DNA from: Escherichia coli | Lineage (GTDB): Bacteria; Pseudomonadota; Gammaproteobacteria; Enterobacterales; Enterobacteriaceae | DNA: 64,000 nt | Direction: 5' to 3' (one strand) | NCBI RefSeq assembly: GCF_003334335.1 | Contig: NZ_QOWQ01000015.1 | In this document: piece after piece, positions 7,296-7,395 of the stretch | How positions within the stretch are numbered: the stretch's first letter is position 1 | How the letters are laid out: each line of letters begins with the position of its first letter | The notes under the pieces: generated by a model | Databases searched by the model: none | The model's input: only the letters and a program-made list of their open reading frames with translations | What the model was told of the DNA's origin: nothing | Program-made: the position numbers and the translations under genes

Positions 7296-7395
7296 TGCCG
7301 GATGCGGCGTGAACGCCTTATCCGGCCTACAAAGTCGTATAAATTCAATGTATTGCAGTTTATTGGTAGGCCTGATAAGCGCAGCGCATCAGGCA
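7296..7395. repeat. BIME/RIP-type element: two inverted REP palindromes flanking an A+T-rich spacer
   Basis: tgccggatgcggcgtgaacgccttatccggcctaca ... gtaggcctgataagcgcagcgcatcaggca; canonical E. coli REP sequences. Confidence 0.85.

Follow-up and report, generated by a model that had tools for sequence, protein, structure and literature searches.

RIP, the repetitive IHF-binding palindromic element, and RIB, the reiterative ihf BIME, are alternative names for the repeat BIME-1. The binding of IHF, a DNA-bending protein, to these repeats was reportedly first studied by Boccard & Prentki (1993) and by Oppenheim et al. (1993). A BIME-1 consists of one Y and one Z1 REP separated by a long and conserved L linker, which often carries an IHF site, and is found as a single copy of ∼140 bp, whereas BIME-2 combines Y and Z2 REPs through short linkers and is arranged in tandem (PMC3333891, PMC1187871). 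The Y REP and the pairing of REPs are common to both classes; BIME-2, which is represented in Rfam by naRNA4 (Y-l-Z2, as in REP325), differs in having a longer Z2 REP, short linkers without an IHF core and a usually tandem arrangement. A further Rfam family, ES036 (RF02751, CssrF), is entered as a small-RNA gene, and its consensus comprises the L linker followed by the first bases of the Z1 REP. BIME-1 also resembles REPINs and bacterial MITEs (for example Correia elements with an IHF site), which are short, non-autonomous, intergenic and strain-variable and have inverted ends and long hairpins (PMC3184786); in contrast to these, it contains two REP types (Y and Z1). REPINs are two inverted REPs that form one long hairpin and are mobilised by a RAYT transposase; for BIME-1, mobilisation by TnpA-REP/RAYT or by any other transposase has yet to be demonstrated (PMC3333891). 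Its presence/absence polymorphism among E. coli isolates has already been published (PMC1187871).

In this study, three such repeats were analyzed in a stretch of 64,000 nucleotides of E. coli DNA (the window), which is a chromosome segment with 99.96% identity to K-12 MG1655 (NC_000913.3, from 4,072,724). In the rhaD/rhaA REP array the window is 184 bp shorter than MG1655, a shortfall that corresponds to two 92-bp array units. The original prediction had placed three elements at 7296-7395, 35662-35762 and 55044-55143, at the 3' ends of genes with convergent or co-directional neighbours, and had proposed that they belong to the IHF-type BIME-1/RIP class. Reading of the window bore out these coordinates, and the gene context fits at each locus: element 1 lies between convergent genes (yiiF> <fdhE), element 2 between co-directional genes (pfkA> sbp>) and element 3 between co-directional genes on the minus strand (<yiiX <metJ). 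As expected of BIME-1, each element is extragenic, downstream of a stop codon and at the 3' end of a transcription unit. A single Y-L-Z1 unit is found at each of the three loci, with no tandem array, and is composed of a Y REP of 35 nt, an A+T-rich L linker of 34-35 nt and a Z1 REP of 30 nt. CTAC and GTAG face the spacer, and the REPs are therefore head-to-head. The similarity runs past the ends originally reported, and the true unit lengths are 154, 154 and 130 bp. The features of the three elements, and of a separate REP pair in the window, are as follows.

7266..7419, plus strand: element 1, a full-length BIME-1 running Y-to-Z1 (yiiF stop at 7246, fdhE stop at 7576)
7266..7295, plus strand: left outer motif of element 1, TCAGATTGCTGACAACGTGCGCGTTGTTCA, which fits the 141-copy consensus and includes the left terminal inverted repeat and the hairpin ACAACG/CGTTGT
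7296..7330, minus strand (the GTAG-first strand): Y REP of element 1, corresponding to the naRNA4 Y half
7331..7365, plus strand: L linker of element 1, 35 nt, 26% G+C (ES036, 36.8 bits)
7343..7355, plus strand: IHF core-like site of element 1, ATTCAATGTATTG, with one mismatch to WATCAANNNNTTR
7366..7395, plus strand: Z1 REP of element 1, 30 nt
7396..7419, plus strand: right outer motif of element 1, ATCTTACGCTTGTCATCAGTCTCA, which bears the right terminal inverted repeat
35639..35792, minus strand: element 2, a full-length BIME-1, inverted, in the pfkA 3' region (ES036, 48.2 bits)
35639-35662, 35663-35692, 35693-35727, 35728-35762 and 35763-35792: right motif, Z1 REP, L linker, Y REP and left motif of element 2, respectively
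35703..35715, minus strand: IHF core-like site of element 2, ATTCAATAAATTG
55018..55147, plus strand: element 3, a BIME-1 truncated to 130 nt, with ends set to within ∼2 nt by the O157:H7 empty allele
55018-55043, 55044-55078, 55079-55112 and 55113-55142: partial left motif, Y REP, L linker and Z1 REP of element 3, respectively; the right motif is missing
55091..55103, plus strand: IHF core-like site of element 3, ATTCAATAAATTG
55171-55173 and 54985-54987, both minus strand: metJ stop and yiiX start, the neighbours of element 3
30600..30683, no strand assigned: BIME-2-type REP pair, with a Z2 REP at 30600-30637 and a Y REP at 30649-30683, tail-to-tail

Over the 100 nt originally reported, the three elements are 87-90% identical to each other when placed in the same orientation. 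The Y arms agree at 34-35 of 35 positions and the Z1 arms at 28-29 of 31, and the linkers at only 23-28 of 35; the G+C content is 62-63% in the arms and 23-29% in the linkers. The description of the elements as near-identical is thus apt for the arms but generous for the spacer. Similarly, the common core that had been proposed, ttgcaaattcaataaattg, is exact in the copy at 35.7 kb and matches at 18 of 19 positions in the copy at 55.0 kb, but at 14 of 19 in the copy at 7.3 kb. The copies were also recovered independently by a repeat finder, which aligned 7266-7419 with 35639-35792 over 154 nt at 82%. In all 5,426 of 5,426 complete E. coli genomes the BIME-1 linker recurs from 8 to more than 40 times per genome, and chance similarity is excluded because the unit recurs in each of them.

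The naming of the Y REP was based on the Y half of naRNA4 (model positions 1-32), which the Y arm matches base for base, with a perfect match in element 1. For typing the REPs, Y, Z1 and Z2 consensus strings were also used. A family consensus was derived from 141 distinct copies in Escherichia and Pseudocitrobacter genomes, among the matches listed, and consists of the left motif CAGATTGCTGACAAAGTGCGCTTTGTTCA, the Y REP, the linker AAAATCGTGCAAATTCAATATATTGCAGAAATCAT, the Z1 REP and the right motif ATTTTGCGTTTGTCATCAGTCTCA. The outer motifs of this consensus contain terminal inverted repeats of 15 nt, TCAGATTGCTGACAA and TTGTCATCAGTCTCA, which are imperfect and match at 12 of 15 positions. Covariation in the hairpin of the left motif (ACAACG/CGTTGT versus ACAAAG/CTTTGT) was considered but is not claimed, since mixed, non-pairing combinations are present in a wider sample of copies. 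The predicted folds of the elements are far more stable than those of shuffled controls (z about -4.4); pairing of the Y and Z1 arms is predicted in element 1, and the minimum-energy structures of elements 2 and 3 consist mainly of separate REP hairpins.

The three elements fit BIME-1 because they show the Y REP, the Z1 REP and the L linker of the published definitions, and we regard their identity as ordinary copies of BIME-1 (RIP, RIB) as secure. The likeness extends to the head-to-head arrangement of Y and Z1, an L linker with a central IHF core, a unit of ∼150 bp, an extragenic 3' position and presence or absence among strains; there is no essential difference, apart from the truncation of element 3, which has lost the right motif, and the lack of an IHF peak at element 2 in one dataset. 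The class originally proposed, that is, one Y and one Z1 head-to-head with a long conserved L linker, as a single extragenic unit at 3' ends, is therefore the one adopted here. BIME-2 identity was rejected: the second arm is 30 nt long compared with ∼37 nt for Z2, the linker is 34-35 nt long, the unit is single, and the elements score 38-39 bits against naRNA4, below its gathering score of 59.5, through a match to the Y half alone. The simpler REP pair that had been noted at 30599-30685 does exist, as a Z2 REP joined tail-to-tail to a Y REP by an 11-nt linker. It lies between genes, following yiiM and preceding cpxA, scores 78.6 bits against naRNA4 and is outside the BIME-1 set. Other BIME-2 units are found in the window at 21587-21862, and the tandem arrays of the window are made of BIME-2 units.

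Taken as a whole, the three loci are best explained as BIME-1 copies with an IHF site in the linker and a role in 3' UTRs, which originated by insertion at intrinsic-terminator hairpins; we assign this reading a probability of about 0.88. Its parts rest on evidence of different kinds, which is presented below for the IHF site, the terminator hairpins and the transcribed RNA.

At the same position in the centre of all three linkers is the sequence ATTCAATnnATTG, i.e. ATTCAAT(AA/GT)ATTG, which agrees with the IHF consensus WATCAANNNNTTR at 12 of 13 positions. The single mismatch is at position 2, which is T in every copy examined. As the original prediction had implied, the spacers align with each other around this central core. 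An exact-consensus IHF site in the elements was ruled out, the strict 13-mer being absent from all three; a scan of the window for WATCAANNNNTTR with zero mismatches gave three matches, compared with 2.5 expected, none of which lies in an element. A relaxed IHF pattern, WWTCARNNNNTTR, which resembles motifs from genome-wide IHF data (PMC8407004), is matched exactly in all three linkers. It is not enriched in the window (15 matches compared with 9.5 expected), and because it is so common there the argument for IHF rests on the conserved position of the core and not on counts. Among 23 linkers that lay outside the search pattern, the relaxed core was judged to be kept in 18 (14 flagged by a script and four identified by eye on the other strand) and the strict form in none.

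In addition to consensus matching, IHF was assessed using a published table of ChIP-chip peaks, for which the offset between U00096.2 and NC_000913.3 was taken to be 1,977 bp, a value based on the rRNA operon positions, which fit the 5.4-5.6-kb peaks in the table. The peaks were obtained under anaerobic conditions and are given in U00096.2 coordinates (Myers et al., 2013; PMC3688515, Table S4). Element 1 (centre 4,078,091) falls within the peak at 4077657-4078573, the centre of which is ∼24 nt away, and element 3 (centre 4,126,024) falls within the peak at 4125465-4126426, the centre of which is ∼80 nt away, whereas element 2 (centre 4,106,643) is in no IHF peak of this one anaerobic dataset (PMC3688515). 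Centred IHF peaks are thus present at elements 1 and 3 but not at element 2. The 16 IHF peaks of the window cover ∼10.0 kb (∼16%), and an overlap with two of three elements would arise by chance with a probability of ∼6%, which is weak alone; the centring of the peaks on elements 1 and 3 is more persuasive, at a ChIP-chip resolution of a few hundred base pairs and with repeat probes that may cross-hybridise. That IHF binds the linker DNA at its centre is supported from the literature and in part from these peaks. The sharp central bend introduced by IHF would bring both REPs and the ends of the element side by side.

The occupancy of the three loci in the 5,426 complete E. coli genomes is as follows.

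yiiF-fdhE: occupied in 3,424/5,426 (63%); the empty allele is ∼148 bp shorter
pfkA-sbp: occupied in 5,312/5,426 (98%), nearly fixed
metJ-yiiX: occupied in 2,713/5,426 (50%); the empty allele is ∼124 bp shorter, e.g. in O157:H7

Whole elements are therefore present or absent among E. coli at the polymorphic yiiF and metJ loci, for both of which empty allele sequences were recovered. An element is present at pfkA-sbp in E. albertii as well, and likewise in Escherichia sp. MOD1-EC7003, a cryptic lineage. In strain tcmA_3, element 1 carries an IS621, which separates GTAG from GCCTGAT in the Z1 REP.

The relation of BIME-1 to terminators was examined at 19 distinct loci that have both outer motifs, by comparing the 45-nt flank beyond the left end with that beyond the right end. 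The two flanks are direct repeats of each other, with a mean local score of 12.2 compared with 6.0 for mismatched pairs (Mann-Whitney p = 2e-6), and the score exceeds the 99th percentile of the control in 8/19 of these full-length loci. The repeated segment is a G+C hairpin specific to the locus, and a hairpin of -8 kcal/mol or better adjoins the left end at 15 of the 19 loci and the right end at 12. The order at such loci is an A run, the hairpin, T(T)C, the element, the hairpin and a T run. In O157:H7, where pitA-uspB is empty, a single CGAGCGGGTCAGTTTACTGGCCCGC precedes a T run; in K-12, where the locus is occupied, a copy is found on each side of the element. At yvcK-uvrB, one hairpin is present in the empty allele and two in strain E69; in the common E. 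coli allele, however, the left copy of the hairpin alone remains, which counts against duplication. In these alignments, the intrinsic-terminator hairpin of the locus is often directly duplicated on the two sides of full-length BIME-1 copies. This duplication differs from that of MITEs, since it comprises a whole terminator hairpin of 16-29 bp and not a fixed short target duplication. A more specific proposal, that BIME-1 inserts at the foot of Rho-independent terminator hairpins and duplicates the whole hairpin, so that the length of the duplication (16-29 bp) would be set by structure and not by a fixed stagger, is put forward tentatively, and the odds are against it. The hairpin duplication is not stated in the accessible literature, the BIME/RIP papers of the 1990s being outside its scope, and may already have been described.

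Around elements 2 and 3 the following terminator features were identified.

35622..35638, plus strand: decayed upstream copy of the pfkA terminator hairpin, GGCAGATTCCTTTACCC, after an A run
35793..35814, plus strand: intact pfkA terminator hairpin, GGCGGATTTCTTCCGCC, with TTTTT, directly after element 2 and predicted to fold
55005..55017, no strand assigned: half of the metJ terminator hairpin (AAAAAGCGGTGGG), which is split by element 3
55148..55167, no strand assigned: the other half of the metJ terminator (ACTCCGCGCCGCTCTTTTTT)

The run at element 2 is the pfkA stop, an A run, GGCAGATTCCTTTACCC, the element, GGCGGATTTCTTCCGCC and TTTTT. The two hairpin copies are identical at 12 of 17 positions in the window, at 13 of 17 in E. 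albertii and at 15 of 17 in Escherichia sp. MOD1-EC7003, in which the functional, distal pfkA hairpin has a compensatory change in its stem (G-C versus A-T). Judged by this comparison, element 2 shows a decayed version of the hairpin duplication. Element 3 shows no hairpin duplication and lies inside the hairpin instead: the empty metJ allele has an unbroken hairpin, AAAAAAGCGGCTGGTTAACTCCGCGCCGCTCTTTT, with an A run and a T run, and in the occupied allele the element is within the loop of the metJ terminator, the outer stem of which is still formed ahead of the U run in the predicted fold. At element 1 there is no clear duplication, and the flanks have strongly diverged from the empty allele. 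Related copies have inserted at intrinsic-terminator hairpins, in most cases duplicating the hairpin in full, and this would by extension be the probable origin of the three in the window. A duplication of this kind keeps a working terminator distal to the element, which would explain the location of BIME-1 at 3' ends.

All three elements lie between a stop codon and a functional terminator and should therefore be transcribed into the yiiF/fdhE, pfkA and metJ 3' UTRs. Other REPs have been described as blocking exonucleases and as causing partial, context-dependent termination (bioRxiv 10.64898/2026.03.23.713779). Judging from this published work and from the position of the elements, we infer a 3' UTR role for the three, in which their REP hairpins, being stable, would stop 3' exonucleases and cause a partial attenuation of read-through.

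One alternative is that the elements are selfish, MITE-like DNA with no host function, that their 3' location reflects sites at which insertion is tolerated and that the IHF site serves the element, for example through a bend that lets the ends meet in mobilisation. We consider this to be rather unlikely. In its favour, 37% of E. coli genomes lack element 1 and 50% lack element 3, with no obvious consequence, the linker reaches 8 to more than 40 copies per genome, and the mechanism of mobility is stated to be unknown in the accessible literature (PMC3333891). The BIME-1 family also has terminal inverted repeats and target-like duplications; of these MITE-type traits, the terminal repeats match at 12/15 positions, and the flanking direct repeats, found at many loci, are hairpins of variable length, not clear at element 1 and missing at element 3. 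Against it, 98% of E. coli genomes retain element 2, as do E. albertii and the cryptic Escherichia, and REPs affect the expression of neighbouring genes (bioRxiv 10.64898/2026.03.23.713779). The absence of host function is in any case compatible with the reading of the loci as BIME-1 copies, as it contests a benefit to the host and not the identity of the elements.

It is improbable that the elements are built-in attenuators or terminators for the downstream gene, with the REP and the adjacent hairpins acting as terminator and anti-terminator alternatives. A BIME upstream of sbp, at the position of element 2, was placed in a cluster of candidate attenuators by Naville & Gautheret (PMC2965389), and a terminator hairpin is found directly 3' of element 2. 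This terminator, however, is locus-specific and older than the insertion, empty alleles elsewhere carry the terminator alone, and many strains do without elements 1 and 3. As the terminator predates the insertion, the association between BIME and terminator is a choice of insertion site and not a designed switch, and the hairpin duplication would account more simply for the BIME/sbp association of Naville & Gautheret.

The linkers of all three elements match ES036, with scores of 48.2, 39.6 and 36.8 bits for elements 2, 3 and 1, respectively, against a gathering score of 37.6; such a score indicates sequence membership alone and is not proof of sRNA production. What Rfam enters as a small-RNA gene is here the internal linker of a DNA repeat, in either orientation to transcription, and from the content of its consensus I take ES036 to be a DNA repeat that has been entered as an RNA family, and not evidence for three sRNA genes. 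That the linkers are small-RNA genes (ES036/CssrF) with a regulatory role of their own, the REPs being no more than flanking structure, is very improbable: two linkers pass the gathering score, the third falls short by 0.8 bit and the model has a short stem (UGCAA/UUGCA), but the consensus is simply the L linker with the head of the Z1 REP, the copies point either way with respect to the upstream gene, the decay of 3' UTRs is expected to pass through RNA fragments delimited by REP hairpins, and no sigma-70-like promoter was found beside any of the three copies in simple promoter and terminator scans, which gave nothing useful around the elements and missed the evident pfkA terminator.

The preferred reading, that of BIME-1 copies, makes the three loci already-known textbook repeats, with nothing new on IHF. 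For annotation, it explains the matches to Rfam ES036, the IHF ChIP signal at gene ends and the differences in length among strains of the yiiF-fdhE and metJ-yiiX spacers. If terminator hairpins are indeed the insertion sites of BIME-1 and are duplicated in full, insertion would leave termination intact in both directions, and the reaction would seem to be structure-specific, acting on hairpins that are extruded or single-stranded. The hairpin duplication, if it is not in the older literature, would provide a concrete handle on the mechanism by which BIME-1 spreads. If new, it would also indicate how the 3' UTRs of pfkA, metJ and other housekeeping genes may gain ∼150 nt of structured RNA while the terminator is kept.

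At full-length copies of BIME-1, the local intrinsic-terminator hairpin was often found to be directly duplicated around the element, in the order A run, hairpin, element, hairpin and T run. When the outer flanks of these copies were scored as direct repeats and compared with mismatched flank pairs, the 99th percentile of the control was passed by eight of the 19 distinct loci (p = 2e-6). In the empty alleles of the pitA–uspB and yvcK–uvrB comparisons, the hairpin was present only once. The sites concerned are as follows.

35622-35638 and 35793-35814 of the window: hairpin copies flanking element 2 (pfkA/sbp)
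pitA–uspB: occupied/empty comparison, K-12 (L128) versus O157:H7 (L127)
yvcK–uvrB: comparison of alleles at loci L050, L126 and L125

The copy at metJ (element 3) is truncated and, instead of adjoining a duplicated hairpin, occupies the loop of the terminator hairpin of metJ (window 55005-55167; comparison locus L004), and the outer stem and U run of this terminator still form around the element in the predicted fold.

The consensus of the Rfam family ES036, described as the 'sRNA' CssrF, consists of the L linker and the head of the Z1 REP of BIME-1, and its matches mark copies of a DNA repeat and are not evidence of an sRNA gene. The Z1 REP of element 1 (yiiF/fdhE) is interrupted between GTAG and GCCTGAT in E. 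coli tcmA_3 by IS621, a member of the IS110 family, the target of which is the REP head.

7331-7373, 35685-35726 and 55079-55120: ES036 matches in the window
L003 2760-4050 (E. coli tcmA_3): IS621 insertion, corresponding to window position ∼7369

A direct repeat of 100 nt with 73% identity (6429-6528 and 6867-6966) precedes two adjacent genes, yiiE and yiiF; since both genes are annotated in some genomes as belonging to the CopG or ribbon-helix-helix family, the repeat has the appearance of a promoter or leader region that was duplicated.

Among the other REP sequences, a BIME-2 array of Y and Z2 REPs with a 92-bp period lies between rhaD and rhaA (21587-21862), comprising two full units and one partial unit with two Rfam naRNA4 matches; the array in MG1655 is longer by 184 bp, or two units. 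Two isolated, degenerate Y-like REPs without a partner (42768-42810 and 59438-59474) have 60-70% similarity to the consensus. The following Rfam matches are routine and consistent with the gene map.

12459-12517: selenocysteine insertion element in fdoG
49378-49435: ClpQY (hslVU) promoter element
54047-54099: L31 (rpmE) ribosomal-protein leader

E. coli-type BIME-1 was also found on very short or low-coverage contigs of assemblies labelled Desulfosporosinus, Bacillus coahuilensis, Methylobacterium and Alkalicoccobacillus, as well as of Bacteroides and Collinsella MAGs (L022, L057, L058, L059, L060, L021, L085 and L086). The L059 contig is identical to the yiiF–fdhE locus of the window, and contamination or mis-binning is the most likely source of all of these contigs. 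Whereas L-linker units occur as single copies in E. coli, those of the cryptic-lineage strain Escherichia sp. MOD1-EC7003 form tandem arrays, in which up to eight copies are repeated at a period of 107, 115 or 162 bp (L073 2722-3502; L076 13953-14632; L075; L084). Among the matches listed, Pseudocitrobacter spp. carry the L linker together with the Y and Z1 REPs and the outer motifs (L023-L043 and L061-L066), and hairpin duplications are clear at their copies; the BIME-1 family is therefore not restricted to Escherichia but extends beyond this genus.
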